Both the position numbers and the translations under genes were made by a program. The notes beneath the pieces are model-generated. The model saw only the letters and a program-made list of their open reading frames with translations. It did not search any database and had not been told where the DNA came from. 64,000 bases of DNA, from IMG/VR virus record IMGVR_UViG_3300023174_000074, positions 62,809 to 126,808 of that record, one strand, 5' to 3'. The first letter of the stretch is position 1. Every line of letters starts with the position of its first letter. Shown here piece after piece: positions 4,171 through 57,108 of the stretch. Origin of the DNA: a virus.

Positions 4171-4217
4171 ATCTTATATATATTGTGATATATAGACTAA
4201 ATTTAAAAAAATTATAA

Positions 4218-18170: not shown

Positions 18171-18401
18171 ATGAAAACTATAATCCACGTAAACCAACAC
18201 AACATCAAGGTCAATGCTAAGGGTGAAAATAAACCTGTTATCACATGCAAGACATATAAGACAAACACTTATGCAAACGAAGTCACGATATATGGACAGG
18301 ATGGACTCCCGGCTGCTAGGATAATCTACTCAAAAGATAAACCGCTCTCATGTGGTGCCAAAGTTTGGATAGAAACTTATGGCAAAGTGGAGACTAAATA
18401 A
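18171..18401 (+). CDS. Hypothetical phage protein
   Basis: IHVNQHNIK...YSKDKPLSCGAKVWIET. Confidence 0.65.
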   Translation: MKTIIHVNQHNIKVNAKGENKPVITCKTYKTNTYANEVTIYGQDGLPAARIIYSKDKPLSCGAKVWIETYGKVETK

Positions 18402-18405
18402 GAAG

Positions 18406-20450: not shown

Positions 20451-21616
20451 AATCTACCCAAACTCCATCCGTCACTAATATATTTATCGATTTCTTGCAC
20501 ATCAACCCTAACTGATTTTTTTGATTTATTTATCCATTTTTTACCCCTTGATGAATTTCCCATGCCTTTTCGACTTTCGTCAGTGATATTTAACTTATCT
20601 TTATCAACGATTCTTCCCAAACACCATCCCTGACATATCCATTTTTCTAGTTGGTCAGCCTTAACCTTTTTATTTTTATCAAAGCAATTATTTATCCAGA
20701 TGGTATTTTTATGAACATTGCTCATTTTTAATTTAGCATCCGTTGATCTTTTCATCCCCTTACTTACGTGTCTCAATTCTCCAGATTCCAATCTAGGATC
20801 ATCTATTTTAACCCTCATTCCGTTACCGCTAACATCTTTAACTGGTATTGTTCCCTTAGTAACACCCTGTAATTCACCGGATATAAATCGAGGATCATTT
20901 CGATCCAATATTAAATTTTTGCCTCCATCCTTAACAACTACTTTATGTGTAAATTTATGAATTAGCTCACCACTTTTTAATCTTGGATCGTCGGTTTTTA
21001 TTCTTATGTTATTACCATTTTTATCATTTACACATACTGTTCCTTTTATTATACCTGTCATTTTTTCATTTTTGAATTCGTCCTTATTAACATAACGAAT
21101 AATTCCATTTTTATCCCTTCCTACAGCATTGTTACAATGTATACTTTTTAGATCACCATTAAGATAATTAGGATCATCGGTTGAAACCTGTTGGGTCTTT
21201 CCCTCCCCGTCCTTAACAGTAACATATCCTGTTGATATAAATATTAATTCTCCGCTTAAGTACTCTGGATTATTAACTGAGGTCTGAAACGTATCCCCTT
21301 TTTTATTTCTAACCGTGACAACTCCACAGCTTCCCCCTCCACCACCACCTAAAGTGATATTATATACATTTTCATTTAATATAAATTCGTTACTTACTAG
21401 TTCTTTTTCTTTTTCTAACATTTTATTTCTACTATCAAAATCATACAATATAATTTTTTTAAATTTCTCTATTCCGTATTTTTTAATAGCTAGTTTAATT
21501 AATTTACCTGATCCCATATAGTTATCATTAATATTATATGTGGAATGACACCCAATATAGATTTTACTATTTACTAGATTTAATATTAAATAAATCAGAT
21601 GATGTTTTTTCGCCAT
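20447..21616 (-). CDS. GIY-YIG (Seg-like) homing endonuclease
   Basis: LIYLILNLVNSKIYIGCH, YMGSG, E, YN; repeated DDPRLxSGEL modules. Confidence 0.85.
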   Translation of the reverse strand: MAKKHHLIYLILNLVNSKIYIGCHSTYNINDNYMGSGKLIKLAIKKYGIEKFKKIILYDFDSRNKMLEKEKELVSNEFILNENVYNITLGGGGGGSCGVVTVRNKKGDTFQTSVNNPEYLSGELIFISTGYVTVKDGEGKTQQVSTDDPNYLNGDLKSIHCNNAVGRDKNGIIRYVNKDEFKNEKMTGIIKGTVCVNDKNGNNIRIKTDDPRLKSGELIHKFTHKVVVKDGGKNLILDRNDPRFISGELQGVTKGTIPVKDVSGNGMRVKIDDPRLESGELRHVSKGMKRSTDAKLKMSNVHKNTIWINNCFDKNKKVKADQLEKWICQGWCLGRIVDKDKLNITDESRKGMGNSSRGKKWINKSKKSVRVDVQEIDKYISDGWSLGRF

Positions 21617-21651
21617 TTTGTTAGTTTATATATATATATATATCTAACTAT

Positions 21652-21713
21652 AGAATCGAATATACAGCCTACACCAGGCGAGTAAGAAAGTTTACGTCAT
21701 GAGAAGATTCTAG
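21652..21713 (+). pseudogene. Orphan duplicate of the helicase 3' end
   Basis: Reads RIEYTAYTR-SKKVYVMRRF* versus helicase end RILYTSYTRASRKLYVLRRF*. Confidence 0.75.
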
Positions 21714-22504
21714 TAGCTTTCTCTGATACGGATAAACTTGCAGTCAAGAAATTCCTCGATAGCCTTTTGTCTTAGTCTATCCTTTTCTTTTAATTCGTCA
21801 TTTATATAGTGGTATTTTTCGTCCCATTCATAAACTGTGTTATTTTCTTTATCATATCCATCTACCCAATATCCAAGTTCTTTAACGTGAAATTCACACC
21901 CGTTTTCTGCGTGTTGAATTCTAATCCCGGTTTCTTCCATTAGCTTATTAAAGTACTCGCAGCCTTTTTTGCTATATGGAGGATGGAATTTTTTATCGAT
22001 TGCTTTAAGCTTATCAATAAAAATTACTCTTAGCTTTTTCCTAGTCTCCTCGTTATGGTGTTTCCCGAATTTAGTATCTCTTAATGAATTTTCCCAATTA
22101 GTTCTATGCTCATCACTCATCTTCTTTCCTTTATTCCATGGCGTGCTTGATCCCCATTCGGTATCTTTAATCCCATTCTTCCAATTGCTCTTATATTCTT
22201 CACTCATTGGCTTACCCTTATTCCAAGGTTCATATCCTTCCTTGTGTACATAAGCCCAGCCCACAGCATTTGGTTGAACTTTCTTGCTGCAGCTTTTACC
22301 GCAATGTTCTCTGTATCCCTTAGCTATATTATTAAATGAAGCTTCCCTATCACACTGCTTGCATTTTATCTTCTCCCCATTTAAAACGTATTGATCATAA
22401 TAATCCTTGGTATCTATTTTATGGTTCTGTTTTATGTGACTTCCGAATCCGTTATTTGACTTTGTTTCGAATCCGCATATCTTACATTTCTTGATATCTT
22501 CCAT
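21710..22504 (-). CDS. Putative homing endonuclease (Zn finger, PWNKG/NUMOD3 repeats, PD-(D/E)xK-like domain)
   Basis: CKIC..H..H, PWNKGK twice, YWVDGYDKENNTVYEWDEKYH, FIRIRE. Confidence 0.7.
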   Translation of the reverse strand: MEDIKKCKICGFETKSNNGFGSHIKQNHKIDTKDYYDQYVLNGEKIKCKQCDREASFNNIAKGYREHCGKSCSKKVQPNAVGWAYVHKEGYEPWNKGKPMSEEYKSNWKNGIKDTEWGSSTPWNKGKKMSDEHRTNWENSLRDTKFGKHHNEETRKKLRVIFIDKLKAIDKKFHPPYSKKGCEYFNKLMEETGIRIQHAENGCEFHVKELGYWVDGYDKENNTVYEWDEKYHYINDELKEKDRLRQKAIEEFLDCKFIRIRESY

Positions 22505-22540
22505 GACTGTGCATAAACTTTAAAGTATATATCATTTTAT

Positions 22541-22571
22541 TTTTTATTCCCGGGTCTGATTCTTATATTTG
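22541..22571 (+). promoter_or_regulatory. Promoter upstream of the cassette array (CG-N11-TATATTTG)
   Basis: TTTTTATTCCCG-GGTCTGATTCT-TATATTTG. Confidence 0.65.
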
Positions 22572-22772
22572 TAATATAAAATATGGAATATGGAAAAAAT
22601 AGAAACATTAAAAGAAGAACTAATTCATTTAGTAGAAACGGCAATTCAATTCGGTGTTGATTTTGTTGATGTTGTAAAGGTCAAACCATCTGAGAGAAAA
22701 AGGACCGCAAACCGGATGGTTGAAAACACAATCAAAGATTTAGAAAACCCAAAACAAATTAATGATTGAACC

Positions 22773-22859
22773 TAACGGTTGGGTATATGTGAAGTACCTT
22801 ACCACAAAACTTAAAAATTAAATAGAAACTTTAGGAGGTATTTCACATATACCTTGTTA
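22773..22859. repeat. attC-like site 1
   Basis: TAACGGTT; arms GGTATATGTGAAGTACCT / AGGTATTTCACATATACC; TTGTTA. Confidence 0.8.
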
Positions 22860-22874
22860 TAACTCGTTTTAATT

Positions 22875-23117
22875 ATGACTCGATTTGAAAGAAAAAACAG
22901 AACTGAAATAGTTTATAAAGGATTCGGTGGTATTACCGATGCTTTTGACGATATGTATAAACAACTTTGGAGAATAAATGATGAAGAATATAATTATTTA
23001 TGTGAAACACTTACTGATGAAGAATTGAGTGATATTACGCCAGAATTTAAAACTATATCTCAAATAAAAAAAGCGATAACAATAGTAAATACGGCTCTTT
23101 CTAAAAATGAGTTATAA
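22875..23117 (+). CDS. Cassette 1 hypothetical protein
   Basis: Stop codon is the TAA of the next TAAC. Confidence 0.65.
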   Translation: MTRFERKNRTEIVYKGFGGITDAFDDMYKQLWRINDEEYNYLCETLTDEELSDITPEFKTISQIKKAITIVNTALSKNEL

Positions 23118-23203
23118 CGGTTGAGTGTATGTGTAGGTTTTTTGAAATTAAACTTTAATATATACTAAAAACTAAATAAAAAACTTACATATACACCTTG
23201 TTA
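23115..23203. repeat. attC-like site 2
   Basis: Arms GTGTATGTGTAGGTTTTT / AAAAACTTACATATACAC. Confidence 0.8.
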
Positions 23204-23257
23204 TGTGCCGTTTTTTCTTATGGACTTCAAATTATTAATTTTTAAAATAAACAAAAT

Positions 23258-24325
23258 ATGAATTTAGCAAGTGTACAAAAAGTAATCAAATTAACCCCAA
23301 TTGAGGGTGCAGATTTGATAGAAACAGCAACCGTATTAGGTTGGGAAATTGTAGTAAAAAAAGGCGAATACAAAGTGGGTGACTTATGTAGTTACATTCA
23401 GATTGATACAGTAGTTCCCGAACTACCCGAATATGAATTTTTAAGGGAACGGAAATTTAGAGTAAGAACAATCAAATTGCGTAAACAAATTTCGCAGGGG
23501 CTTGTAGTTCCTTTACCTAATGGTAAATGGAAAGAAGGCGATGATATTACAGAGGTTTTGGGAGTAAAGAAATACGAGAAGCCAGACAATAACCCAGAAC
23601 GCTATGAGAAGCCAAGAATGTCTAAAAAATGGTATAAGAAATGGATTTACTTGTTTAAATATAATTTCCTTTTCAAGTTGTTCCCAAAATTACAAAGGTT
23701 AAGCCGTTCTCCATTCCCTAAAAATTTGGTATCAATTACCGATGAAGAAAGAATACAAAATATACCACATGTATTACAACAATACGCTGGTAAATTATTT
23801 GTAGTAAGCTATAAACTTGATGGTAGTAGTATTACAATAATTCATTCAAAGGTTTTTGGTAAAAGTAAGTTTAGAATTTGCAGTAGAAGATTTGAATTGC
23901 ACGACAAAAAAAATGATTGGTACAAAGTATTTACTGATACTAATTTTAAATATGAAATTGCAAAACTTGTAAAGCACTTTAAAACTGATGATATAATTGT
24001 ACAAGGCGAAGCAATAGGCAAATTTAACGGCAACCACCACAACTTACAAAAAGAGCAAATTAGGTTGTTTAATATCAATGTAAACGGCAAAAGATTAAAC
24101 CAACAGGAATTTATAAAAACTTGTTTGGCAAATAATATTCCACATTGCCCAATGTATAAGGAAATTGTTTTAAATCACTCTTTACCCGAAATATTGGCTT
24201 TGTCTGAAATTAAAGACGTGATTAATCCATCAGTAGATGTTGAGGGTTTAGTTTGGCGTTGCGTTGAAGATAATTTAAGTTTCAAAGTGATAAACAATAA
24301 ATATCTTCTTAAAAACAATGAGTAA
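23258..24325 (+). CDS. Cassette 2: RNA ligase, Rnl2/DRB0094-like
   Basis: LASVQKV...IEGADLIE, SQGL, TDEERIQN, KLDGSS, QGE, EGLV, SFKVINNKYLLK. Confidence 0.85.
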   Translation: MNLASVQKVIKLTPIEGADLIETATVLGWEIVVKKGEYKVGDLCSYIQIDTVVPELPEYEFLRERKFRVRTIKLRKQISQGLVVPLPNGKWKEGDDITEVLGVKKYEKPDNNPERYEKPRMSKKWYKKWIYLFKYNFLFKLFPKLQRLSRSPFPKNLVSITDEERIQNIPHVLQQYAGKLFVVSYKLDGSSITIIHSKVFGKSKFRICSRRFELHDKKNDWYKVFTDTNFKYEIAKLVKHFKTDDIIVQGEAIGKFNGNHHNLQKEQIRLFNINVNGKRLNQQEFIKTCLANNIPHCPMYKEIVLNHSLPEILALSEIKDVINPSVDVEGLVWRCVEDNLSFKVINNKYLLKNNE

Positions 24326-24349
24326 CGGGGTGTTTCCTAAAATGGCACA

Positions 24350-24397
24350 TAACGGTTGAGTGTAAAAAATCGTTTTAATGTTTTTTACACTTTGTTA
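24350..24397. repeat. attC-like site 3 (shortest, 48 nt)
   Basis: Arms GTGTAAAAAA / TTTTTTACAC. Confidence 0.75.
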
Positions 24398-24425
24398 TAA
24401 GTATGTAAAACAAAAATTATACAAT

Positions 24426-24593
24426 ATGAAAGAAAAAATTGAAAATAGGTTAAAAGAGTTATATGATGAATACAAACATGTAACTGATAAAGATAGAGTT
24501 TGGATTAAACAAACAGGTGGTTTAACAAGAAGAGAACGAATTGAAAAATGTAAAATTCTAATAGAAGAGTTAGAAACATTATTAAATTCATAA
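24426..24593 (+). CDS. Cassette 3 hypothetical protein
   Basis: Likely start MKEKIE at 24426. Confidence 0.55.
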   Translation: MKEKIENRLKELYDEYKHVTDKDRVWIKQTGGLTRRERIEKCKILIEELETLLNS

Positions 24594-24611
24594 TTTTTGT
24601 TTTATTACTTA

Positions 24612-24728
24612 TAACGGTCACAGATATATGTAGTTGTTTAACACAAAACTTAAATAATATGAATAAAGATAAAAATTTAGAACAAAACTTGGATAAGAGT
24701 AATAAAAAATTACATATATCTGATGTTA
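24612..24728. repeat. attC-like site 4
   Basis: Arms CAGATATATGTA / TACATATATCTG. Confidence 0.8.
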
Positions 24729-24931
24729 GTTGTAGTATTGATGATATTAAAAAATGGGTTGATAGTGAAATTGGTTACTATGACGAATGTGATACTGTTG
24801 AAGATGCGATTGATGATATGTTACATGATTTCAAAACACATTTTTTAAATATTGATTACACAAAGAAATTTGATAAGGAAAACGAACTTATAAAATACTT
24901 CAAAAGTGAGTGGGAACAATATTACAACTAA
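24659..24931 (+). CDS. Cassette 4 hypothetical protein
   Basis: ATG within hairpin loop; stop is TAA of TAAC. Confidence 0.65.
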   Translation: MNKDKNLEQNLDKSNKKLHISDVSCSIDDIKKWVDSEIGYYDECDTVEDAIDDMLHDFKTHFLNIDYTKKFDKENELIKYFKSEWEQYYN

Positions 24932-25054
24932 CGGTTTGCAGATAGGCGAAGGCAAGGATTTAGAAAACAAAAATTTAACTTTAAAATAGAATTTAATATG
25001 AAAAAGAAATCATCATTTTACCACAACACCCTTGCTTTTGCTTATGTGCTGTTA
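24929..25054. repeat. attC-like site 5
   Basis: Arms GCAGATAGGCGAAGGCAAGG / CCTTGCTTTTGCTTATGTGC. Confidence 0.8.
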
Positions 25055-25183
25055 GTTGCAGTTTTTTTGTGGGTGGCAATTTCAAGCACCATTCAAAGGT
25101 TCAAATGTGCTAAACTTACTGAAACAGAAATATTTATTAGAATACCAAAGTCTTTTGTGTGCGATTGGGCAAATTGCAACTAA
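24998..25183 (+). CDS. Cassette 5 small membrane protein
   Basis: One hydrophobic segment; ATG in loop; stop at TAAC. Confidence 0.6.
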   Translation: MKKKSSFYHNTLAFAYVLLVAVFLWVAISSTIQRFKCAKLTETEIFIRIPKSFVCDWANCN

Positions 25184-25305
25184 CGGTTGATGCTTGGTGC
25201 AGTTGCGAAATTGAACGATAAACTTAATTAAAAAACGGAAACATGAATTGGATTAAAAATATTTTTAGAAAACGGAAACAAGCAATTGCATCCAAGCATT
25301 TGTTA
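25181..25305. repeat. attC-like site 6
   Basis: Arms ATGCTTGGTGCAGTTGC / GCAATTGCATCCAAGCAT. Confidence 0.8.
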
Positions 25306-25503
25306 GCGGCTGGGCTGGAGTTTAGACGAACATCTCTTGGTCAAGCTGCATTTATTCCGAAAGGCACAACAAGTAATTATGCTGATAAAATAATGTTCCC
25401 CGACAATTGGAGTAGAGCAGAATTTAGAGCAATGGCAGATTACATGGATGCGTTTCCTGACTGCACATTATTTTCAGATGGAAGTGGTAAGCCTTGCCGC
25501 TAA
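25243..25503 (+). CDS. Cassette 6 hypothetical protein
   Basis: ATG in loop; stop at TAAC. Confidence 0.65.
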   Translation: MNWIKNIFRKRKQAIASKHLLAAGLEFRRTSLGQAAFIPKGTTSNYADKIMFPDNWSRAEFRAMADYMDAFPDCTLFSDGSGKPCR

Positions 25504-25625
25504 CGGTTGGGTATAAATGAAGTGCCGATTTTGAAAAACAAATGTTCAATTAAAAACAAAAGATAAAATGGAAAACAAAAGTTCAATTACAGACGAAAGT
25601 AAGGCATTGCAACAAGCCGATGTTA
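25501..25625. repeat. attC-like site 7 (mismatched arms)
   Basis: TAACGGTT and ATGTTA borders intact; only GTGCC/GGCAT pair well. Confidence 0.65.
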
Positions 25626-25813
25626 GCAGCAGTGCGAGGTATATAATTGTTGATGAAAGCGTTTCAGCACATTGTTGTTTTGAATGCACAATAATTGATA
25701 CCGCAGCAGGTAAAGAAGCTTATGGTGATTACTGGAAGCGTTCAATGTGCGAAACATTCGACAGGGCAGAAGCTGAAATTATATGTGATGCGCTCAATAA
25801 GCATTTCTGCTAA
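25568..25813 (+). CDS. Cassette 7 hypothetical protein
   Basis: SVSAHCCFECTIID; ATG in loop; stop at TAAC. Confidence 0.65.
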   Translation: MENKSSITDESKALQQADVSSSARYIIVDESVSAHCCFECTIIDTAAGKEAYGDYWKRSMCETFDRAEAEIICDALNKHFC

Positions 25814-25898
25814 CGATTTCGGGCTTGGCGAAGTGCCGCTACTCGAAACTTGAATTTTAGCACTAACTGTCCTGCGGCATTTTGCCAAACCCGTGTTA
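25811..25898. repeat. attC-like site 8
   Basis: Arms CGGGCTTGGCGAAGTGCCGC / GCGGCATTTTGCCAAACCCG. Confidence 0.8.
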
Positions 25899-25946
25899 TG
25901 GGATAGTTTTAAAAACCTTTTAGGGTGGGCATTTAAAAACGAAATA

Positions 25947-26405
25947 ATGATAATAGCGATTGATTTTGATGGAACTTGCGTAACACACGAATTTCCAAAA
26001 GTGGGCAAAGACATTGGTGCTGTGCCTGTATTAAAAGAGTTGGTTAAAAATAACCACCAATTAGTTTTGTTTACAATGCGAAGCGACATAGTTAATCCAA
26101 CGGGAGAGGACAATGAATTGCACCTTGAAAGCGGAAACTATTTAACTGATGCAATTGATTGGTTTAAACAAAACGAAATACCACTTTACGGAATACAAAC
26201 CAACCCGATACAGCACACTTGGACTACAAGCCCGAAAGCATACGCACAACTTTACATTGATGATGCTGCTTTAGGATGCCCACTTTTGGTTGACATTGTA
26301 AAAGATGGTGACGAAAGTATTAAGCAAGTTGGCAGACCTTATGTTAATTGGGAAAAGGTAAAAGAAATGCTAATTGATAAAGGGATTATTGATGATGAAG
26401 ACTAA
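25947..26405 (+). CDS. Cassette 8: HAD-family phosphatase (BT0820-like)
   Basis: IAIDFDGT, LFTMR, PKAYAQLYIDD. Confidence 0.75.
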   Translation: MIIAIDFDGTCVTHEFPKVGKDIGAVPVLKELVKNNHQLVLFTMRSDIVNPTGEDNELHLESGNYLTDAIDWFKQNEIPLYGIQTNPIQHTWTTSPKAYAQLYIDDAALGCPLLVDIVKDGDESIKQVGRPYVNWEKVKEMLIDKGIIDDED

Positions 26406-26440
26406 CCCGTGCGGTGGGAAAAGGTTTTTAAAATTTCCCA

Positions 26441-26567
26441 TAACGTTTTGCAGCTATGCCCAGTTGGGCAATTTTAAAGACAAAATAATCAACTTAAAAT
26501 AAAGTAAATATGGAACACGAAAATATTAACAAACAAGAAGATGCCCAATTGGGTATAGGTGGTGTTA
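26441..26567. repeat. attC-like site 9
   Basis: Arms CAGCTATGCCCAGTTGGGCA / TGCCCAATTGGGTATAGGTG. Confidence 0.8.
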
Positions 26568-26722
26568 GCATCAGTGCCTTAACGGAATGGCTTAAAAGCG
26601 AATCTGTTTATACAGCATTGAGGTACGCATCAAAGAACCCATCAAATAGCGGTATGGATAATTGTGAAGATAAAAGTTATTTACATCTATACAATTTAAT
26701 TTGTCAGATTCGTAGGCATTGA
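26510..26722 (+). CDS. Cassette 9 hypothetical protein
   Basis: ATG in loop; ends 4 nt before TAAC. Confidence 0.6.
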   Translation: MEHENINKQEDAQLGIGGVSISALTEWLKSESVYTALRYASKNPSNSGMDNCEDKSYLHLYNLICQIRRH

Positions 26723-26725
26723 TGC

Positions 26726-26805
26726 TAACGGTTGCGGATATGAGAAGGGAAAAAATACCAATGAAAAATAAACAAGAATTTTTTACTTTCTTATATCCGT
26801 TGTTA
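26726..26805. repeat. attC-like site 10
   Basis: Arms CGGATATGAGAAGGGAAAAAAT / ATTTTTTACTTTCTTATATCCG. Confidence 0.8.
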
Positions 26806-26871
26806 TCGGTCTGGTTTGGTTTCAATTTTTGTGCTGAGGGTTTAGAATTTCATCATTAAATAAATATACAA

Positions 26872-27135
26872 ATGGAAAACAATAATTGCATAGTAGAGAA
26901 AAAATTTCTGTTCTGGAAATGGAAAGCGGTGGAGCATCATTACAAGATGCACCGAATAAGTAAATTCATGGATTGCTCAACATCATTCCATGTTGATTGG
27001 GTATGTAAGTGCGGGGCAAGGTGGGAACAGAAATTTGTTGAACAGGACGAATTATTGTTGAAAGGAATATCAACTGAAATTCTAAATAAGATTGACGGTT
27101 GGCATTCGCACTACTGCGGGAAGGAAAAAAATTGA
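26872..27135 (+). CDS. Cassette 10 hypothetical protein
   Basis: 87 aa ORF between sites 10 and 11. Confidence 0.6.
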   Translation: MENNNCIVEKKFLFWKWKAVEHHYKMHRISKFMDCSTSFHVDWVCKCGARWEQKFVEQDELLLKGISTEILNKIDGWHSHYCGKEKN

Positions 27136-27150
27136 AACCAAACTTGCCGA

Positions 27151-27276
27151 TAACGTTCCAAGTATTGCCGATGGTGGGGCATTACACCACCAAAGTTCAA
27201 TTAACAAACTAAAGTTCAAAATATGCACACAGATTCAAAAAAGCACGAAACCCCCACTATTGGCAATACTTTGTTA
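27151..27276. repeat. attC-like site 11
   Basis: Arms AAGTATTGCCGATGGTGGGG / CCCCACTATTGGCAATACTT. Confidence 0.8.
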
Positions 27277-27513
27277 TATGCTGTTAAAAATGGGCAGTTG
27301 AAAAGGTGGTTTTACGAGTTTAAACACGGACACCCATTTCTACTTGACGAAGAAGCTACTATAATTGTTTCTACAAGATTAAGTGATAAAAGTGCTTCTT
27401 GGATGAATGATGAACAGATTAAAGAACTCGTAAAACTTAGAGTGAAAGCAATGTATAAAAAGAAATTTCCAAATGCAAAACGGTGGTCGTTGCCCATTTT
27501 TAATTGCATATAA
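27223..27513 (+). CDS. Cassette 11 hypothetical protein
   Basis: ATG in loop; stop at TAAC. Confidence 0.65.
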   Translation: MHTDSKKHETPTIGNTLLYAVKNGQLKRWFYEFKHGHPFLLDEEATIIVSTRLSDKSASWMNDEQIKELVKLRVKAMYKKKFPNAKRWSLPIFNCI

Positions 27514-27637
27514 CGGTTGAGGATTTATTTAGTTGCGAATAAAAAATTACAAAATATGATAACAGAAGAACAGTTGAAAAAAGCAGAAAAAGTTATTGCT
27601 GACTACAAAGCCGAGCAATTGAATAAATCCTATGTTA
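27511..27637. repeat. attC-like site 12
   Basis: Arms AGGATTTATTTAGTTGC / GCAATTGAATAAATCCT. Confidence 0.8.
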
Positions 27638-27792
27638 TAAAATCGTTTCCGAGCGATGATGAAATACATAAGGAATCGTTGAGGGTGTGCAGGATAGAGG
27701 CAGAGTTTGTGCAAGGGGTAGCGTGGTGCTATCACGATAAAGGAGCAAAATGGATGATGGAAGAACTAAAGAAGCGAGGAAATGTTTTATAA
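27556..27792 (+). CDS. Cassette 12 hypothetical protein
   Basis: Start MITEEQ in loop; stop at TAAC. Confidence 0.65.
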   Translation: MITEEQLKKAEKVIADYKAEQLNKSYVIKSFPSDDEIHKESLRVCRIEAEFVQGVAWCYHDKGAKWMMEELKKRGNVL

Positions 27793-27878
27793 CGGTTTTG
27801 GTGTATGAGAAGGTTTGCTTAGATAAATTTTCAAATTACAACTGAACTTAACAGCAAACTTTCTTATACACCTTGTTA
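27790..27878. repeat. attC-like site 13
   Basis: Arms GGTGTATGAGAAGGTTTGCT / AGCAAACTTTCTTATACACC. Confidence 0.8.
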
Positions 27879-27942
27879 TACACAGTGCGGTTTATTTGGT
27901 AGAAACTTTAATTAAAAAACAAATATAAAAAAATTAAAAATT

Positions 27943-28320
27943 ATGAAAAATTATTTATTGACAGATTTTAATACTGAAAGATGGAAAGGTATTAATATAG
28001 AAAGTGCAGAAACACAAGTAGAAAAATTGAATGAAAAAATTAATAAAATTGGATGTTTATTTGGTGAAATAGGGAATCCAGAAACATTTGAGATTTCGTT
28101 ATCAAGAGCATCACATTCAATTAAAAATTTAACTTTTGTAGATGGTAAAGTTTATGGTGATGTTGAATTTTTGAATAATGATAACGGAAAACAAGCAGAC
28201 AATTTTATTAATAATATGAATTGTATATTTGGAATAAGAAGCACAGGAACATCAGAACAATATAAAGATGGTGAAATAGTTATCCATTCAATTTTTACTT
28301 GGGATGTAATCAATGACTAA
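27943..28320 (+). CDS. Cassette 13: degenerate T4 gp21-like prohead protease homolog
   Basis: FGEIGNP, ISLSRASHSIKNL, VYGDVEFL, NGK, FGIRSTG resemble gp21 GELxHP/VSH/GxSSRG. Confidence 0.55.
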   Translation: MKNYLLTDFNTERWKGINIESAETQVEKLNEKINKIGCLFGEIGNPETFEISLSRASHSIKNLTFVDGKVYGDVEFLNNDNGKQADNFINNMNCIFGIRSTGTSEQYKDGEIVIHSIFTWDVIND

Positions 28321-28367
28321 TAATTTTTAATTTTTATTAGATGAACTTGATTAGAAGTAGAAATGTA

Positions 28368-28400
28368 GCATTGTGTATAACTATTATATATAAGTAAGTG
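28368..28400. other. Putative attI-like site
   Basis: Last TAAC (28378-28381) closes cassette 13, has no following hairpin and abuts the recombinase start. Confidence 0.5.
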
Positions 28401-29228
28401 TACCATAAACCATTTAATATCAACACTTTGAATCAAAAAATTATAAAGATTTGTGAGGAAAAGTTTATATATTTAAACTACTCACCAAGAACAAAAGACA
28501 ATTATATGTGTCATATTAAAGATTTTCTTAATACTCTTAATGACAAACAGATAATTCATTGTAGTTCCAAAGATTTTCAATCATATCTAGATAATTATCA
28601 ATTCACCTCTGTTTCTCAACAAAACCAGGTTATTAACGCTATTAGATTTCTGTATAAGTACGGACTTGATAAGAAATACGATAAGGTATCGTTTAAAAGA
28701 CCAAAATCGGAAAAGAAGCTACCCAGAGTTATTGATGGTGAATTTATAAAAGAAAAACTAAACAAGATTGGTAATCTGAAACACAAAGCAATCTTAACAC
28801 TAACCTATTCAGTTGGATTAAGGGTGTCTGAAATAGTTAATCTAAAGATTGAAGATATTGACTCAAAAAGGATGCTTATACACATCAAAAACGCAAAAGG
28901 CAGAAAGGATAGGATAGTTCCGCTGTCATTAACTGTTTTAACTTTGCTAAGAGAATATTTTAAAGAGTATAAACCTTCAGATTATCTTTTTAATGGGCAA
29001 AATTCTTCATTGTATTCAATACGAAGCTGTCAGCAAATTTATAAAAAATACATTGATGACGGGTCATCAATACATACACTAAGGCATTCCTCTTTCACCA
29101 ACCTATTAGAATCAGGAACTGATCTAAGGATTATTCAAAAAATAGCAGGTCATTCCAGCTCTAAAACAACAGAAATTTACACACACGTCTCAAATAGTCT
29201 TTTAAGTAGGATAAAACTTCCAATTTAA
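28398..29228 (+). CDS. Tyrosine recombinase, integron-integrase-like (start uncertain)
   Basis: YSPRTKDNY, SQQNQVINAIRFLY, KKLPRV, GLRVSE, KGRKDR, HTLRH, GHSS, TEIYTHV. Confidence 0.92.
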   Translation: MYHKPFNINTLNQKIIKICEEKFIYLNYSPRTKDNYMCHIKDFLNTLNDKQIIHCSSKDFQSYLDNYQFTSVSQQNQVINAIRFLYKYGLDKKYDKVSFKRPKSEKKLPRVIDGEFIKEKLNKIGNLKHKAILTLTYSVGLRVSEIVNLKIEDIDSKRMLIHIKNAKGRKDRIVPLSLTVLTLLREYFKEYKPSDYLFNGQNSSLYSIRSCQQIYKKYIDDGSSIHTLRHSSFTNLLESGTDLRIIQKIAGHSSSKTTEIYTHVSNSLLSRIKLPI

Positions 29229-29285
29229 TTTTTTTACCCCGAAAATTTTACTTAGCATTGCGGTAGAACAATTAAAATACCAACT

Positions 29286-29753
29286 ATGCTAGTAGATGTA
29301 TCAAAAGGAGAAGAAGAAGTTCTTTCCGTAATCAGAGGAGGTAAAAAATATAACGGGGGAAGCTTTGAAACCCTTTATATAGAACTTTCAGCAGAAACAA
29401 GATCTCTTGTAGAAGCAGCAAAGATCTACATTCTCGACAATTACGAGAAGGTGAAGGATTATAAGACTCTACATCTTATGCTGAGATGCGCCAATCACGG
29501 GGGAACACAATATTTCGGAACGAAGAGCAGGAGAGCTAAAAGCCGTTCTGAAATATTCAACAAGATAATAAATGAGCTCAACGAAAAACAGATTGAAATT
29601 AAAAAGTTTGATGCAGCTGTTTATGATTGGACAGATGGGGATTTCTCCGTTGTGTTTAACGGGGAAAGTTACAACTGGATTGATAGCAATTCTATTATTG
29701 ATATTGCAGCACACATAGAAAGAAAACTTGACAATGGTAATAAGATTTTATAA
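29286..29753 (+). CDS. Hypothetical protein
   Basis: 155 aa ORF after CG-N11-TAGCATTG promoter. Confidence 0.6.
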   Translation: MLVDVSKGEEEVLSVIRGGKKYNGGSFETLYIELSAETRSLVEAAKIYILDNYEKVKDYKTLHLMLRCANHGGTQYFGTKSRRAKSRSEIFNKIINELNEKQIEIKKFDAAVYDWTDGDFSVVFNGESYNWIDSNSIIDIAAHIERKLDNGNKIL

Positions 29754-30078
29754 AGGCGAAGATCGAAGATGGTATGCTGATCTTCCGGAGTATATTGCTC
29801 AAGGAGGAACAGAGGAGGAGTGCGAGATGGTAGCAGGAGCTGATGATTGGCTGGATTTCATTTCAGAAAACAGAGAAGCTGTTACATTAGCTTTATCGGA
29901 TCAGGATTCGCTAACAGAGAAAATAGTTCTATACGAGAGTGACGAATCCGGAGCTACTTACATAGCTCACACTTTCAAGGGGGAAGATATTAACCAAATA
30001 CTTTGGCTTTGCTCAGTTACAGTTTTTGTATTTGGTCATTACCCAAAAGAAATATATTATCGCGTAATAAGAGAATGA
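29734..30078 (+). CDS. Hypothetical phage protein
   Basis: RWYADLPE, EMVAGAD, WLCSVTVFVFG. Confidence 0.6.
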   Translation: MVIRFYKGEDRRWYADLPEYIAQGGTEEECEMVAGADDWLDFISENREAVTLALSDQDSLTEKIVLYESDESGATYIAHTFKGEDINQILWLCSVTVFVFGHYPKEIYYRVIRE

Positions 30079-31214
30079 AATACGATTTAAACACATTAAA
30101 TGACTATATTGAGCGTGGACTTCTGATCAAGAATTCTCACCCAACTCTGCCTATAGACATCTATAACTATTCTAGAGATTGCCAATTTTCGCAATTGTGG
30201 GATGAAATCACGTTAAATATGAGGGGTACGGTTTTAGATCGTGAGGGTAACATTGTGGCTAGATCTTTTCCTAAGTTCTTCAACATGGAAGAGCATAAGC
30301 CGGAGGAAATTCCAAATGAGGAGTTTGAAGTGTTCGAAAAAATGGACGGATCATTAGTAATTCTTTTCCACTATGAGAGCGAATGGCATTTGGCTACCAG
30401 AGGATCTTTCGTTTCTGAGCAGGCAATAAGGGGTAAAGAAATCCTAAAAAAATACAGATATGAGAGACTGATCCCAGGATTTACCTATCTGTTCGAGATC
30501 ATCTATCCCGAAAACAGGATCGTGTGCAACTATGACTATGAGGACTTAATACTTCTTGGGGTAATTGATAACAAAGATGGTTATGAACTTAGAATCCACC
30601 ATAATAGCATACATTTAGAGGGTATTAGATTTGTTAATATGTACAACAATCTAGGATTTAAGATTGTTAAAAAATACGATGGTGTTCAGGATTACAAGCA
30701 ACTGAAATCTATTATCGAGAATAATGCAGAAGGATTTGTAATCAAATTCAAATCTGGATTCAGAATGAAGATTAAAGGGGAGGAGTACGTCAGGTTACAT
30801 AGGTTGATAACAAACTTCTCAAACGTTGATATCTGGGAGCTGTTAAAAGACGGAAAGAATGTCGACGAGTTTCTAGATAGAGTTCCTGATGAATTTGATA
30901 AATGGGTTAAGAGAACGATTCGTGATTTAAAGTACAGTAAATACGCAATTGGTGAGAGAGCAGGTAAGGTCCACGATTACTTTAGATATGGTAAATACAG
31001 TGACCGCGAAACAGAGCCTACTAAAAAAGAGTTTGCCGAGCATCTAGAATTTTGTAAGGTTGAGCCAAGCATAAGATCTATATGTTTTGCAATGTGGGAT
31101 AGAAAGGACTATGATCACATTATATGGAAAATGCTAAAGCCAAAATATCAAAAACCTTTCTGGAATAAGGAAGAAGAAATTCCAACAGATTCAAAATGGA
31201 TTAAAAAAGATTAA
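30075..31214 (+). CDS. T4 Rnl1-like RNA ligase
   Basis: IYNYS, RG, FPKFFN, EKMDGS, ATRGSF, FEII, EGFVI, KIKGEEY. Confidence 0.88.
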   Translation: MKYDLNTLNDYIERGLLIKNSHPTLPIDIYNYSRDCQFSQLWDEITLNMRGTVLDREGNIVARSFPKFFNMEEHKPEEIPNEEFEVFEKMDGSLVILFHYESEWHLATRGSFVSEQAIRGKEILKKYRYERLIPGFTYLFEIIYPENRIVCNYDYEDLILLGVIDNKDGYELRIHHNSIHLEGIRFVNMYNNLGFKIVKKYDGVQDYKQLKSIIENNAEGFVIKFKSGFRMKIKGEEYVRLHRLITNFSNVDIWELLKDGKNVDEFLDRVPDEFDKWVKRTIRDLKYSKYAIGERAGKVHDYFRYGKYSDRETEPTKKEFAEHLEFCKVEPSIRSICFAMWDRKDYDHIIWKMLKPKYQKPFWNKEEEIPTDSKWIKKD

Positions 31215-31217
31215 GAA

Positions 31218-31859
31218 ATGAAAATAGTATTAGAAAAAAATCAGAACATATTTTTCACCTCTGATTCGCATGCGTTCCACAGAAATATCTGTAGTGCTAC
31301 CAGTGAATGGCCGGAGGGTAGGGGAACTAGGAAATTCCATTCGTTAAATGAAATGAATGATCGACTAGTTTACGAGATAAACGCAGTGGTTGGCCCTGAT
31401 GATATACTAGTTCATCTTGGTGACTGGAGCTTTGGTGGATTCGAATCAATTGGTGAATTTAGGAAGAGAATAGCTTGCAAGAACATCATACTCTTCTTAG
31501 GAAACCACGATCACCACATACTAAACGACAAGGGGGGAGTAAGAAGTTACTTCAAACATGTTTCAAGCTATGATATTTTGGATATCAGAAGACCTGTAGG
31601 TGATAAAACCGAAAAACATCAATTTGTATGCTGTCACTTTCCAATAGCAAGTTGGGATGGTATGAATAAGAGGATTCCACATCTACATGGGCACTTACAT
31701 TTACCACCTAATCTAAAAATTCACGAAGGCCAAGCAATGGATGTTGGCGTAGACGGAAACAATTTTAAACCATACAGCTTAAACGAGATATCGAAGATCA
31801 TGAAGGGAAGACCTGTTAAACATCTGGTTCTACCTAAAGATCATCACACAGAAGAATAA
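31218..31859 (+). CDS. Calcineurin-like metallophosphoesterase
   Basis: TSDSH, LGD, GNHD, HFP, HGHLH, DVGVD. Confidence 0.85.
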   Translation: MKIVLEKNQNIFFTSDSHAFHRNICSATSEWPEGRGTRKFHSLNEMNDRLVYEINAVVGPDDILVHLGDWSFGGFESIGEFRKRIACKNIILFLGNHDHHILNDKGGVRSYFKHVSSYDILDIRRPVGDKTEKHQFVCCHFPIASWDGMNKRIPHLHGHLHLPPNLKIHEGQAMDVGVDGNNFKPYSLNEISKIMKGRPVKHLVLPKDHHTEE

Positions 31860-32046
31860 AAAAAATATAAAAAATGGTAACACAAGAAATTTTAGACACA
31901 TTCGTATTCTCCACAATAGGCGGAGAAAAATTTGGGGTTAATGATCCTATCACTCATGATGAGATTATAGGATACTATCCAACAAAAGAAGAAGCTGAAA
32001 AAGCTTTCGTTGAGTATGTAGAAAAAGAAGGAATAATTTTTGAATA

Positions 32047-32496
32047 ATGGAAAACGTAAGAAGCGAAGAATATCACACACTGAACCCAACCCTATTTCTT
32101 GTGAGAGGAATTTCAGGTTCAGGAAAATCCACATTTGCAAAGCATATCTGGAATGATTACGCTATTTGCGAAGCTGATAAGTTTTTTCACAACAAAGAAA
32201 CTGGTGAATATAACTTTGACGCATCAAGATTAAAGGAAGCACATGAATGGTGTAGAAACGAGGTTGAGACACGAATGAGTGATCATCAGACAAATCCTCA
32301 ATATTATCCAGAGATTGTGGTGTCAAATACATTCACGCAAGAATGGGAAATGCAGGCTTATATCGATCTTGCTAAGAAGTATGGCTACCAGGTCACAACA
32401 TTAATCATAGAGAACCGACACGGTAACTCAAATGTTCACAACGTTCCCACGGAAACGTTGGATCGGATGAGACAAAGATTCGAGGTAAAACTTTAA
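32047..32496 (+). CDS. P-loop kinase (AAA_33, polynucleotide-kinase-like)
   Basis: RGISGSGKST, EAD, VSNTF, HNVP. Confidence 0.8.
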   Translation: MENVRSEEYHTLNPTLFLVRGISGSGKSTFAKHIWNDYAICEADKFFHNKETGEYNFDASRLKEAHEWCRNEVETRMSDHQTNPQYYPEIVVSNTFTQEWEMQAYIDLAKKYGYQVTTLIIENRHGNSNVHNVPTETLDRMRQRFEVKL

Positions 32497-32499
32497 TAA

Positions 32500-32940
32500 A
32501 TGAAAACAAAAACATACAATTTATTCTTGGACGACGTAAGAAACCCAAAAGACTGCTGTCAGTATATGCCAAACGCAAAATTCTATTTCGATAACGAATT
32601 TGTTATAGTTAGAAATTATGATGAGTTTGTTAATTTTATAAGAAAAAATGGTTTGCCCAACATCATATCTTTCGATCATGATTTGGCTCATGAACATTAT
32701 TCTTCGGACATGTATGCTAGTACTGAGGTCTACAACAAGAACTACGAAACATTCCAGGAAAAAACTGGAATGGACTGCGCTAAATGGTTAGTTGATCTCT
32801 GTATGGACACAAAACAGGATCTTCCTGATTACATAGTTCACTCAATGAATCCAGCAGGCGGAAAAAATATCTTTATGTATTTGGATAATTATCGAAAATT
32901 CCAGGAGCAAGAGGAGTATAATAGACATCACGGAGAATAA
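32500..32940 (+). CDS. Cyclic-phosphate-processing receiver-like domain protein
   Basis: LFLDDVRNP, ISFDHDL, TGMDCAKWL, VHSMNPAG. Confidence 0.7.
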   Translation: MKTKTYNLFLDDVRNPKDCCQYMPNAKFYFDNEFVIVRNYDEFVNFIRKNGLPNIISFDHDLAHEHYSSDMYASTEVYNKNYETFQEKTGMDCAKWLVDLCMDTKQDLPDYIVHSMNPAGGKNIFMYLDNYRKFQEQEEYNRHHGE

Positions 32941-33935
32941 GAAATGGGGAATACTGTAATACACGAGGAGCTTAACGATAAGCAACAAAAGATGTATGAT
33001 GAGTGGATCTCACACATCAAAGCTATCTATGGGGAATATGGATGCTTCACTTGGAAGATCTCACCAACAGGAATAGGTAGCGGAATTTCTGTTTATAGTC
33101 ATCACACTAAAACTGAATTAGATTTAACCGATGTTGATAGCTGGTAAGGATTTATGCGATTGTGGAGAAATCGCAGTGTGGTGCTACCTTCCAGGATACT
33201 CTGGAGGAGGCAATTCTAACAGCTGTGATGATTGTGTGCATAGAGGATGCGATTGTAACCACTATTCAGTTGACGTGAATTCTTATCATCCGCCATTGAG
33301 TGCTCCTATTTTACCGGAGGGAATAGAAGGAGTTGACTGGAAGTGGATAAAGAAAGATTCCGTATGGGCTGACATAGACGAGAAGGGTAGGGAATATCCC
33401 TGCTGCGAGTACATGTACTCTGAAACAGGTTGGGAAAAAGAAGAACATGAAGAATAAAATATATTTTTACGTAGGAATTATACCATCGGATGAAAATGAT
33501 CTAAAGGAATTTATTAACAACATGATCGAAGACAGCGATCAGAAGTATTTTGTAGAGGTTATTAATGAATATGATGATCCACACGGCTATTACACTTACC
33601 AACTAAGAGGCTCTTGGGAAGCATATAAATGTTTTCTGGGTAGACCTTTTGTTAAATCACTATCACATGACGAAGAATAACACACCAGAAATTTTTATTT
33701 GCGAATGCCACTCCACGGATCATCAGATGGTTATACTATATAGCGAAGATGACGGATACCCAAGAGTTTATTCACACGTTCATTTAAATAAAAGGCCATT
33801 CTGGCAAAGATTAAAATATGGCATCAAATATATTTTTGGCTATAAATCTAGGTATGGTGCATTCGATGAATTTATATTCAATCCAGATGATGCTGAAAGA
33901 CTTCAATCGTTAGTAAATTATTTAAAACAATCAGA

Positions 33936-34997
33936 ATGAAATTTGACTTCGACGACATATTAATTCAGCCGGCAGCGATTAGCAGGATTGAATCGAGAAA
34001 ACAGGTTGATGTTTTCTATGAAGACGGCTACTTGCCTTTATTCACCGCACCAATGGACACTGTGATCGATGATCGTAACTACACGATATTTCAAAGTGCA
34101 GGGATAAAAGTAGTAAGACCTAGAAAGGCACCAGTATCTGAGGTTAATCTAGAAAGTGATTTTAACAACTTCATATCTTTTGGTAAGGATGAGTTTAAAA
34201 AAATCTTTCTAGATAACGGTAAGGTGGAAGTATGCGAAAGATATTATGTTTTAATTGACATTGCAAACGGACACATGCAGAGTTTGCTAGACATGACACG
34301 AGAGGCTAAATCACTATATGGGGATGACATGGTTCTAATGGTTGGTAATATTGCAAATCCAGAAACATATAGGATTTTTTCTGATGCCGGTGCAGACCTA
34401 ATAAGAATATCTATAGGCAATGGTTCTGGTTGTTTGACCTCGGTTCAGACAGGCGTTGGCTATCCTATGGCTTCACTCATCCACGAGTGCTATGAAATTA
34501 GCTGTACATTACAAACTCCAGCAAAAATCGTTGCAGATGGAGGATTCAAAAGCTACGCAGACATCATTAAGGCTCTCGCTTTAGGAGCAGATCACGTTAT
34601 GCTTGGTTCAATATTGAATAAGACTTTAGAGAGCGCAGGCGACACCTATTTAGCTAATACGAAGGGTGAAGGTTGGACAGAGCCTGGCGAGAAGATAGAT
34701 CAGTATTCTGACGAGACTAGAAATCTTTTTAACTACGGGACTAAGATGTTTAAGAAGTTCAGGGGAATGAGCACCAAAGAGGCTCAGAAGGCTATGGGCA
34801 AGACAGATTTAAAAACAAGCGAAGGTGTTACCCGGATGCAACCTGTTGAATACACACTTGTTGGTTGGAGAGATAATTTTATAAGCTATCTTAGTTCGGC
34901 AATGAGTTATAGCAATGCAGCTACCCTACAAGAGTTCATAGGAAATGCTAAATGGAATATGATCTCTACAAATTCATTAAATAGATTTAAAAAGTAA
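33936..34997 (+). CDS. GMP reductase / IMP dehydrogenase family
   Basis: FDDILI, APMDTV, IDIANGH, IGNGSGCLT, ADGG, FRGMS, SEG. Confidence 0.85.
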   Translation: MKFDFDDILIQPAAISRIESRKQVDVFYEDGYLPLFTAPMDTVIDDRNYTIFQSAGIKVVRPRKAPVSEVNLESDFNNFISFGKDEFKKIFLDNGKVEVCERYYVLIDIANGHMQSLLDMTREAKSLYGDDMVLMVGNIANPETYRIFSDAGADLIRISIGNGSGCLTSVQTGVGYPMASLIHECYEISCTLQTPAKIVADGGFKSYADIIKALALGADHVMLGSILNKTLESAGDTYLANTKGEGWTEPGEKIDQYSDETRNLFNYGTKMFKKFRGMSTKEAQKAMGKTDLKTSEGVTRMQPVEYTLVGWRDNFISYLSSAMSYSNAATLQEFIGNAKWNMISTNSLNRFKK

Positions 34998-57086: not shown

Positions 57087-57108
57087 CTAAAAATAAATTA
57101 TAAACAAT

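Follow-up and report, generated by a model that had tools for sequence, protein, structure and literature searches.

A hairpin-bounded gene-cassette array and a compact tyrosine recombinase that probably form an integron-like system in a freshwater jumbo phage

The IMG/VR virus record IMGVR_UViG_3300023174_000074 is 126.8 kb long, and the window analysed here is its 3' half (positions 62809-126808 of the record), a stretch of 64 kb with a GC content of about 35%. CheckV gives the record a completeness of 46%, which at this length implies a jumbo phage, and lake and freshwater metagenome runs hold sequence near-identical to it. Within the window, an open reading frame (ORF) at 28398-29228 on the plus strand encodes a tyrosine recombinase that is the last gene of a cassette array at 22773-28381, lying 3' of the cassettes and co-directional with them. 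In our proposal, the product of this ORF is very probably a site-specific recombinase dedicated to a system of gene cassettes that resembles an integron. Comparison of related loci reveals a link between the recombinase family and the arrays, covariation within the hairpin stems, exact cassette boundaries, complementary cassette ends and reshuffling of cassettes; the recombinase is the presumed catalyst. The features of the locus are the following, with the supporting evidence in brackets and lengths in nucleotides (nt).

22541..22580, plus strand: promoter-like repeat of family D2, ending in TTATATTTG (position before the first array ORF)
22773..28381, plus strand: cassette array of 5.6 kb with 13 cassettes and 14 TAAC junctions (motif count, hairpin finder, flank pairing, covariance model)
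22773..22859, plus strand: hairpin site 1, 87-nt class (finder, covariance model at 94.2 bits, folding)
23115..23203, plus strand: hairpin site 2, 89 nt (finder, covariance model, folding)
24350..24397, plus strand: hairpin site 3, 48-nt short class (finder, covariance model)
24612..24728, plus strand: hairpin site 4, 117 nt, enclosing the ORF start at 24659 (finder, covariance model)
24929..25054, plus strand: hairpin site 5, 126-nt long class, enclosing the ORF start at 24998 (finder, covariance model)
25181..25305, plus strand: hairpin site 6, 125 nt, enclosing the ORF start at 25243 (finder, folding; partial covariance model match)
25501..25628, plus strand: hairpin site 7, inner stem decayed, junction and flanks retained (covariance model at 27.5 bits, flank pairing)
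25811..25898, plus strand: hairpin site 8, 88 nt, TAACGATT variant (finder, covariance model, folding)
26441..26567, plus strand: hairpin site 9, 127 nt, TAACGTTT variant, enclosing the ORF start at 26510 (finder, covariance model)
26726..26805, plus strand: hairpin site 10, 80 nt (finder, covariance model, folding)
27151..27276, plus strand: hairpin site 11, 126 nt, starting a cassette common to the related phage locus L052 (finder)
27511..27637, plus strand: hairpin site 12, 127 nt (finder, covariance model)
27790..27878, plus strand: hairpin site 13, 89 nt, opening the last cassette with ORF 27943-28320 (finder, covariance model at 98.3 bits)
28366..28395, plus strand: attI-like terminal junction, non-hairpin (alignment of 64 distinct upstream regions)
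28398..29228, plus strand: tyrosine recombinase without the IntI insertion (PF00589, PF13495, catalytic set, AF2 model, Foldseek)

The recombinase ORF comprises 276 amino acids (aa) when read from GTG 28398 and 266 aa when started at TTG 28428, and the lengths of its homologs (mostly 266-267 aa), together with the upstream alignment, make the latter the likely true start. Its product contains the motifs YSPRT, SQQNQVINAIRFLY, LPRV and LREYFKEYKPSDYLFNGQ and matches PF00589 at 1.8e-33. An earlier model-made annotation, the sequence-only reading, had described a compact IntI-like enzyme with a complete R-K-H-R-H-Y catalytic set and an IntI-like N-domain, and both descriptions are borne out. Across a 38-sequence family alignment R142, K167, R229, H252 and Y261 do not vary and conservation of H226 is 90% or more, while the N-terminal domain is PF13495 (46.1 bits, cut-off 27), as in IntI1 (96.8 bits). 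E. coli XerC and XerD carry PF02899 instead, a model on which the phage recombinase reaches 19.6, under the cut-off of 22.3. The absence of the IntI insertion (about 49 residues, the I2 helix region between the beta-hairpin and HxxR), claimed by the same reading, likewise holds: TIGR02249, an IntI model, aligns in two pieces and skips its own positions 206-254, BLASTP against IntI1 gives 26% identity with 56 gap columns in the insertion region, and residues 187-219 of the recombinase align opposite residues 180-260 of VchIntIA (IntI4, 2a3v). The AF2 model built with the 38-sequence alignment (predicted local distance difference test, pLDDT, 90.3) shows no extra helix. Its best Foldseek match in the PDB is VchIntIA 2a3v (E 1.4e-14, TMq 0.72), with XerA next, and XerA is also the contiguous PDB sequence match of the recombinase (4a8e, 7.6e-33).

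As had been anticipated, IntI-specific profiles miss the protein, which scores 145.3 bits on TIGR02249 against a cut-off of 265 and 93.7 on NF011946, a further IntI model, against 435. Scores also fall below the cut-offs of the XerC and XerD models (TIGR02224, 142.2 vs 335; TIGR02225, 141.2 vs 330) and of the best-scoring NCBIfam family, NF040815 (XerA, “site-specific tyrosine recombinase/integron integrase”; 176.3 bits vs 220), and the PHROG match is to the generic family phrog_1, “integrase,” at 4.5e-43. A quick maximum-likelihood tree of 52 proteins, whose only named references were IntI1 and E. coli XerC and XerD, placed the recombinase within a 21-row clade of compact proteins (Shimodaira-Hasegawa-like approximate likelihood ratio test, SH-aLRT, 97), in agreement with the distinct clade that the sequence-only reading had suggested, and separated XerC and XerD from the family with a support of 100. 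IntI1 fell inside the PF13495 group that contains the phage family, beside P0261, a 263-aa protein of the 50%-clustered library that lacks the insertion, aligns with IntI1 along almost all of its length at 34% identity and may stand as an intermediate form between the phage recombinase family and true IntI. Because the branch of IntI1 is long (1.64) and the named references are few, this placement is a lead rather than a result.

The family is large, with all but one of 8000 scored candidates at E <= 0.001 and 1583 representatives of the 50%-clustered library at E <= 1e-30; its top 120 members are 80-87% identical and mostly 266-267 aa long. Scans of IMG/VR with the distant compact members P0125, P0130, P0137 and P0146 returned one locus altogether, and a plasmid search with IntI1 for diverse IntI classes recovered only IntI1. 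Among GenBank phages, megablast with window positions 20000-34000 gave zero matches and tblastn with the recombinase gave 38% identity at best, the matches being integrases from phages of Cellulophaga and Polaribacter, which leaves the phage without a cultured relative in that collection. On plasmids, the nearest relative (48% identity) is a truncated “tyrosine recombinase” on the Acinetobacter baumannii plasmid NZ_CP104336.1 (L086, locus 4055-4720), immediately 5' of tet(X3), and the family thus also moves with a resistance gene, one that we presume to be Bacteroidota in origin.

The cassettes of the array follow a single plan in which a hairpin (TAACG, a bulge of 3-4 nt, a covarying stem, TGTTA) is followed by one ORF and the unit ends in ...TAA. 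Each interval of the array holds one ORF of 59-355 aa, most of them without a Pfam or PHROG match; the exceptions are an RNA ligase, a member of phrog_1238 (“moron”) and a weak protease-like match. The motif TAACGGTT occurs in 9 copies, all on the plus strand at 22773-27797, where 1.47 were expected and the maximum in 100 shuffles was 4. A hairpin finder with the pattern TAAC, 3-6 nt, stem ... stem, 0-3 nt, GTTA reported 12 strong plus-strand sites at 22773-27878 and no comparable site on the minus strand of the window, and the site at 25501-25628, whose stem has decayed, is the thirteenth. These sites were recovered by a covariance model built from 95 phage sites only, which gave 13 plus-strand matches on the 64-kb window, all in the array, with one weak minus-strand echo (34.8 vs 94.2 bits) and zero matches elsewhere in the window. 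A search of the hairpins against Rfam found no matching family and returned just two sub-threshold microRNA-model matches at site 1, which were dismissed. Two more genuine hairpin sites with the same junction motif lie outside the window, at positions 56873-56963 and 57256-57304 of the contig (G000).

The related loci together provide 294 distinct sites, which group by length into three classes (48 nt, about 87-89 nt and about 125-127 nt). Apart from the bases that the finder imposes, A-8, T-7 and T-6 before TAAC, G+4 (97%) and G+7 after GTTA are conserved, as are T-18, A-10 and T-4 on the 3' arm (98% each). The consensus hairpin of 95 mid-class sites comprises 25 pairs, with compensatory changes in 18 of them, and it is the hairpin structure rather than the sequence that is under conservation; covariation between the outer flanks of one and the same site was not found. 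The junction and the inner arm may also resemble the two arms of E. coli dif, a likeness to which we give no weight as evidence. Two G.T (G.U) wobble pairs are near-invariant (92/95 and 93/95 aligned sites), and 276 of the 294 distinct sites carry 3-4 extra nt (consensus GTTG) on the 5' arm between TAACG and the stem. The sequence-only reading had stated that most hairpin arms show no fixed extrahelical base. Its observations were largely right, and so was the direction of its interpretation, a distinct recombinase clade; the different mode of hairpin recognition that it put forward is conjectural, and the reason that it gave, the absence of extrahelical bases, was wrong. Our finding is also wider, adding the attI-like junction, the hairpin-before-ORF polarity, the complementary cassette ends and the bacterial counterparts. 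As for the strand, the plus strand folds better than its complement in 12 of the 13 window sites, by a mean of about 2 kcal/mol, and under strand-neutral criteria 939 G.T pairs were counted vs 554 A.C pairs. The bulged strand in the phage is the sense strand.

The link between array and recombinase was examined in 80 IMG/VR loci, relatives at 59-96% identity. Hairpin sites in these loci are distributed as 371 forward upstream, 12 reverse upstream, 20 forward downstream and 12 reverse downstream. Among the 53 loci with at least 2 kb of upstream sequence, 52 have at least one site and 47 at least two, and the sole exception (L066) carries a CAAC-variant site; the 43 loci with at least 8 kb upstream have 0 to 19 sites each. 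In L028, a near relative of the window, the same flanks (18153-20449 on one side, the recombinase gene on the other) are conserved around an array of different content. A second forward hairpin array is present 3' of the recombinase in L027 (+8273 to +10558), L061 (+7847 to +9786) and L079 (+2926 to +4338), in coordinates relative to the recombinase start.

Next to the recombinase, the array ends in a non-hairpin, attI-like junction at 28366-28395, 50 nt 5' of the likely start codon. Here the end of the last cassette (TAGCATTGTGTA) is followed by TAAC at 28378-28381 and then by conserved non-hairpin sequence, TATTATATATAAGT. All 64 distinct upstream regions share the consensus ATTg...aTAAC TAttaTATATaaa, in which the usual left junction ATTG...ATAAC leads into the non-hairpin TATTATATATAA... 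before the recombinase start, and the left flank of the junction, as read from the sequence, pairs with the right flank of site 27790. A 960-base-pair (bp) cassette, 99.9-100% identical between loci, lies mid-array in L005 and adjoins the attI-like site in two other loci, L022 and L023. Beyond the cassette end, ...TGTGTA|TAAC, the sequence continues as a hairpin in L005 and L022 and as the attI-like sequence in L023 and again in L022, which holds two copies of the cassette (the second copy of its end lies farther upstream). Since the same cassette end is joined to both kinds of sequence, the crossover falls within TAAC, and since L005 and L022 have recombinase genes with no more than 88% identity, cassettes have moved between diverged phages. 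Locus comparison thus shows cassette reshuffling and duplication at the attI-like site, whose activity as a recombination site is predicted.

The cassette boundaries point the same way. For units common to different arrays, 72 of 106 high-scoring segment pairs (HSPs) start within -15 to +9 nt of TAAC. When L028 is aligned with L062 (97.6% identity), or L052 with the window, identity starts exactly at a hairpin TAACG and stops at the next TAACG; the cassette at 27151-27513 is common to L052 at 83% identity, and the shared stretch is bounded at TAACG. In these alignments the bulge belongs to the unit that follows the junction and the ATTG..A flank to the one that precedes it, so the mobile unit is a hairpin together with the ORF after it. 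These observations were further strengthened by the flanks themselves: the 12 nt after the TGTTA of one site pair with the 12 nt before the TAACG of the next at 9.33 of 12 positions on average (240 distinct pairs), compared with 6.18 when a site is paired with its own left flank and 6.13 (at most 6.39) over 500 shuffles, all in the phage set. Within the window, 8-12 of 12 positions pair in 11 of the 12 flank pairs scored, and the last pair, read directly, is TACACAGTGC and TACACAATGC. Because such complementary flanks lie hundreds of bases apart, the outer stem would be completed only in a cassette circularised at TAA|C, and the complementarity of the cassette ends appears to fit circular intermediates, as in the logic of integron cassettes. 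Logan contigs are short and break at the hairpins; their joints have short sides (21-50 nt) or unassigned content and were not counted as excision evidence, and stretches that the contigs leave uncovered were not read as absence.

As the phage loci possibly represent one syntenic lineage, species-representative bacterial genomes were scanned. The scan, made with an 8-row alignment, gave 80 loci at 40-73% identity, mostly Bacteroidota. Of the hairpin sites in these loci, 57 lie downstream of the gene on the reverse strand; forward sites number 5 upstream and 4 downstream, a further 3 reverse sites lie upstream, and 1 site falls within the gene. At least one reverse downstream site is present in 30 of the 44 loci with at least 1.5 kb of downstream sequence, and the occurrence of homologs beside TAAC...GTTA arrays, which the sequence-only reading had offered as a check, is thereby seen in phages and bacteria alike. 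With the phage-derived covariance model, 42 of these 80 loci gave 61 matches in total, of which 59 lie on the other strand from the recombinase, and flank pairing reaches 10.2 of 12 positions with the next site, vs 7.2 with the own flank and 6.35 when shuffled. Array-bearing examples are Flavobacterium terrisoli (L114), F. cheonanense (L133) and F. saccharophilum (L160). The F. terrisoli gene is followed by about a dozen small ORFs, each trailed by a site of 125-129 nt, and its product (347 aa) has an extra N-terminal segment, lacks the IntI insertion and passes the NF040815 cut-off (226.7 vs 220). Sites of 60-70 nt also lie beside homologs in Nitrospirae metagenome-assembled genomes and in Acididesulfobacillus.

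In Flavobacterium and other relatives (42-54% identity), the recombinase gene and the cassette ORFs are oriented oppositely to the sites when compared with the phage. The bulged strand is the antisense strand there and the ORF precedes the site, as in canonical integrons, while the recombinase gene lies upstream of the array and is co-directional with it. Phage cassettes have, in other words, an inverted polarity relative to the bacterial ones, and this strand reversal argues against a purely RNA-level role of the hairpins.

From these data we picture the following mechanism. On the plus (sense) strand a cassette runs from C-G through the GTTG bulge of 3-4 nt, an imperfect stem of 20-30 bp with its loop, TGTTA and a 12-nt flank to the ORF, the complementary flank and TAA. 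The array would be transcribed from a promoter at its far end toward the recombinase, a role probably played by the promoter-like repeat at 22541..22580. The likely substrate, by analogy, is folded single-stranded plus-strand DNA, in which the recombinase would read the hairpin as IntI reads attC and XerCD the folded CTX-phi site, with two subunits on the folded strand, one at the outer box (flank plus TAACG/TGTTA) and one at the inner arm. It would cut the bulged strand at TAA|C within the 5' arm, the side that the observed cassette boundaries indicate, and exchange one strand with a folded or an attI-like site; the exact scissile bond and the resolution of the junction by replication are proposed on the model of these known systems. 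Recombination between two hairpins would then release a circular cassette whose two flanks complete the stem, and recombination between a hairpin and the attI-like site at 28366-28395 would insert a cassette at the recombinase-proximal end of the array.

Several observations weigh against this proposal. What catalyses the exchange, which strand is the substrate and where it is cut are all matters of inference, and the finder demands TAAC and GTTA, so that their apparent invariance is partly circular. The 80 phage loci, if one syntenic lineage, may not be independent when taken alone, a concern mitigated by the bacterial loci, and the position of IntI1 in the tree relies on that one long branch and three named reference proteins. 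Single sites fold with modest energies: only 6 of the 13 plus-strand sites had no shuffle that folded as well, and z-scores were above -1.2 in 5 of the 13. The two sites outside the window form a mini-array about 28 kb upstream of the main array and far from the recombinase, showing that sites are not strictly tied to the gene. Population breakpoints in Logan contigs occur at both hairpin ends and not at the left end alone, a pattern that could come from conserved hairpin families or from homologous exchange. Finally, the plus strand is the messenger RNA (mRNA) strand, so its strand-specific wobbles could equally reflect RNA folding, and the ORF start lies inside the hairpin in about two thirds (66%) of the long-class sites, which also suits a translational role.

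In a first alternative, the cassettes are real, the recombinase uses double-stranded TAACG core sites in the manner of Xer/dif or pdif, and the hairpins have a different function, for example in stabilising or processing the mRNA, controlling translation or attenuating transcription. We regard it as unlikely. It would account for the linear conservation of the left junction (A-8 T-7 T-6 .. A-1 TAACG, with the G at 97%), for the right end, which on the minus strand resembles a complete two-arm core site in a consensus reading, and for outer flanks that do not covary within a site, as well as for the sense-strand bulge and the enclosed start codons. The inner arm, however, varies and yet covaries with a partner 40-110 nt away, as the compensatory changes in 18 of 25 pairs indicate, where a double-stranded arm would show sequence conservation instead. 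The most conserved bases are those of the 3' arm (T-18, A-10 and T-4), far from the crossover, and the complementarity of the cassette ends lengthens the same stem. In bacteria, moreover, the bulged strand is antisense, so a role in mRNA cannot explain its conservation there.

Under a second alternative, the enzyme would be a common phage integrase or dimer resolvase that has nothing to do with the hairpins, and these would be stem-loops with a regulatory or processing role that promote homologous or illegitimate shuffling. Promoter-stem-loop modules have reportedly been proposed to promote modular shuffling in T4-type phages, and hyperplastic regions of small ORFs flanked by repeated stem-loops occur in other large phages. 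The hairpin sequence families common to loci without flanking homology, the contig breakpoints at both hairpin ends and the two sites far from the recombinase gene could be taken in the same sense. Against it, the link between this family and arrays recurs in bacteria, where gene order and orientation are different, a conserved attI-like half-site stands beside the gene in 64 of 64 distinct upstream regions, and a single cassette end is attached to each of the two site types through the same four bases. The sequence common to sites is often just TAACG and a few further bases, too short for homologous exchange, and the flank complementarity fits circular intermediates; this alternative is accordingly very unlikely. 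A canonical integron, that is, a true IntI with attC sites that has been mis-scored, is scarcely credible, since the features that speak for it (an R-box-like TAAC...GTTA core, imperfect hairpins of 48-127 nt, single-ORF cassettes, an attI-like site, the PF13495 N-domain of IntI1 and VchIntIA as the best structural match) are set against a missing IntI-specific insertion, scores of 145 vs 265 on TIGR02249 and 94 vs 435 on NF011946, 26% identity to IntI1, a hairpin before the ORF with the sense strand bulged, which is the reverse of canonical cassettes, and a gene 3' of the array and co-directional with it.

The definition of integrons rests on IntI with its additional domain, which is considered a requirement for reading folded attC sites. 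The integron-like system proposed here shares with them the arrays of mostly single-ORF cassettes, the imperfect hairpins conserved in structure and not in sequence, the AAC...GTT core with a crossover inside TAA|C, the unpaired or bulged spacer beside the outer box, and cassette ends that would complete the site only when circular. It also shares a non-hairpin attI-like site beside the recombinase gene with insertion or duplication at the attI-proximal position, in addition to the N-domain and the structural match named above. It differs in a recombinase that lacks the I2 helix region and scores below every IntI model cut-off, in a hairpin 5' of the ORF whose bulged, better-folding strand is the sense strand, and in a recombinase gene 3' of the array and co-directional with it, with the promoter at the far end of the array. 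The G.T wobbles and the 3-4 nt bulge replace the classical extrahelical G and T. The canonical plan, with the ORF before attC, the bottom strand as substrate and the integrase divergent next to the promoter Pc, is thus departed from in the phage; the bacterial relatives share the order of ORF then site, but their recombinase gene is co-directional with the array and upstream of it. The system works like an integron and fails the defining IntI test, and we therefore call it integron-like rather than a canonical integron. IntegronFinder-type criteria, by the account of PMC9024848, would not call the phage system an integron.

Among the integrative mobile elements exploiting Xer (IMEX), CTX-phi offers a second comparison. 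According to PMC4792948, XerCD, which has no I2-like domain, uses a stem formed by inverted sequences about 90 nt apart in single-stranded phage DNA, exchanges one strand and leaves the junction to be resolved by replication; a Xer-type recombinase without an I2-like domain and a folded-stem site are therefore common to both. CTX-phi, however, borrows the host XerCD and integrates its whole genome at one chromosomal dif, whereas the phage system has an element-encoded recombinase, many sites and single-gene cassettes as the moved units. XerA and NF040815 resemble it in that they supply the best curated family (176 bits) and the 4a8e match, and in that the F. terrisoli homolog passes the cut-off, and differ in that the phage recombinase falls under it (176 vs 220). 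XerA resolves chromosome dimers at a single dif site, and we know of no description of cassette arrays for it. The pdif modules of Acinetobacter plasmids are likewise discrete gene modules between Xer-type sites, found in various contexts, and are in this respect the same as the phage cassettes; their sites are 28-bp, double-stranded and of alternating orientation, are used by the host XerCD, and come without hairpins, a dedicated recombinase or an attI-like site.

A description of such a system was not found in the literature that was searched, a search outside which subscription journals and supplementary tables lie, so that a prior description is possible. PMC9892861 reports that some phages, a Polaribacter phage among them, have attC clusters of the IntegronFinder type but no integrase with them, and it gives no cognate recombinase for these clusters. 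PMC9024848 describes Bacteroidetes as almost devoid of integrons and records clusters of attC sites lacking an integron integrase (CALINs) in Nitrospira. The CALIN lists of these two sources might include arrays of the present type.

A broader proposition, to which we give an even chance, is that the recombinase family is an insertion-less sister or ancestral form of IntI that runs a second, unrecognised integron-type branch, common in Bacteroidota chromosomes and present also in Nitrospirota and a Firmicute, and that this branch was captured by jumbo phages with inverted polarity and shuffles accessory genes between phages. If this is true, hairpin-cassette recombination predates the I2 domain, and some “CALIN” arrays without IntI would have a cognate recombinase of this kind. 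That integrons arose from enzymes of the Xer kind, perhaps within a virus, has until now been a matter of speculation (PMC4792948). What the present comparison brings to it is a recombinase without an I2 domain linked to hairpin cassettes with an integron signature, both in phages and in a phylum nearly free of integrons by the account of PMC9024848. If the biochemistry holds, the question of integron origin becomes testable, and the system would represent a gene-shuffling platform inside lytic-type jumbo phages, a large untapped cassette pool and a compact structure-specific recombinase of use as a tool.

The remaining features of the window concern the surroundings of the array and regions farther downstream. 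The 40-nt promoter-like repeat (a T-run, CCCG and a TTATATTTG-like end) has five plus-strand copies in the window, at 5351, 22541, 42838, 47225 and 58429, and its TTATATTTG element is a candidate Bacteroidota-type -7 box. Two homing-endonuclease-like genes at 20447-21616 (-) and 21710-22504 (-), with weak GIY-YIG/SegE and NUMOD3 matches, run in the opposite direction to the array in the space that separates it from a conserved helicase-like gene, and the stretch that contains both is missing from the related locus L028. Two distinct RNA ligase genes are present: that at 23258-24325 (+) is a cassette gene (PF21189 and PF09414, phrog_968), and that at 30003-31214 (+), 3' of the recombinase, is of the T4 Rnl1 type and is followed by a metallophosphoesterase gene at 31218-31859.

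Two blocks of 63-nt tandem repeats at 40997-41485 and 41743-42294 occupy the region of highest GC content and form 9 register-shifted copies of a 300-nt unit at 67-89% identity, which probably encode a repeat-domain protein. An inverted repeat of 56 nt, 86% complementary, has its arms at 55693-55748 and 63060-63115, 7.3 kb apart. ARAGORN reported a tRNA-like gene at 57017-57087 (+) with no anticodon assigned, and similar 3' ends at 56893 and 57062 suggest a repeat family with a second tRNA-like 3' end close by.

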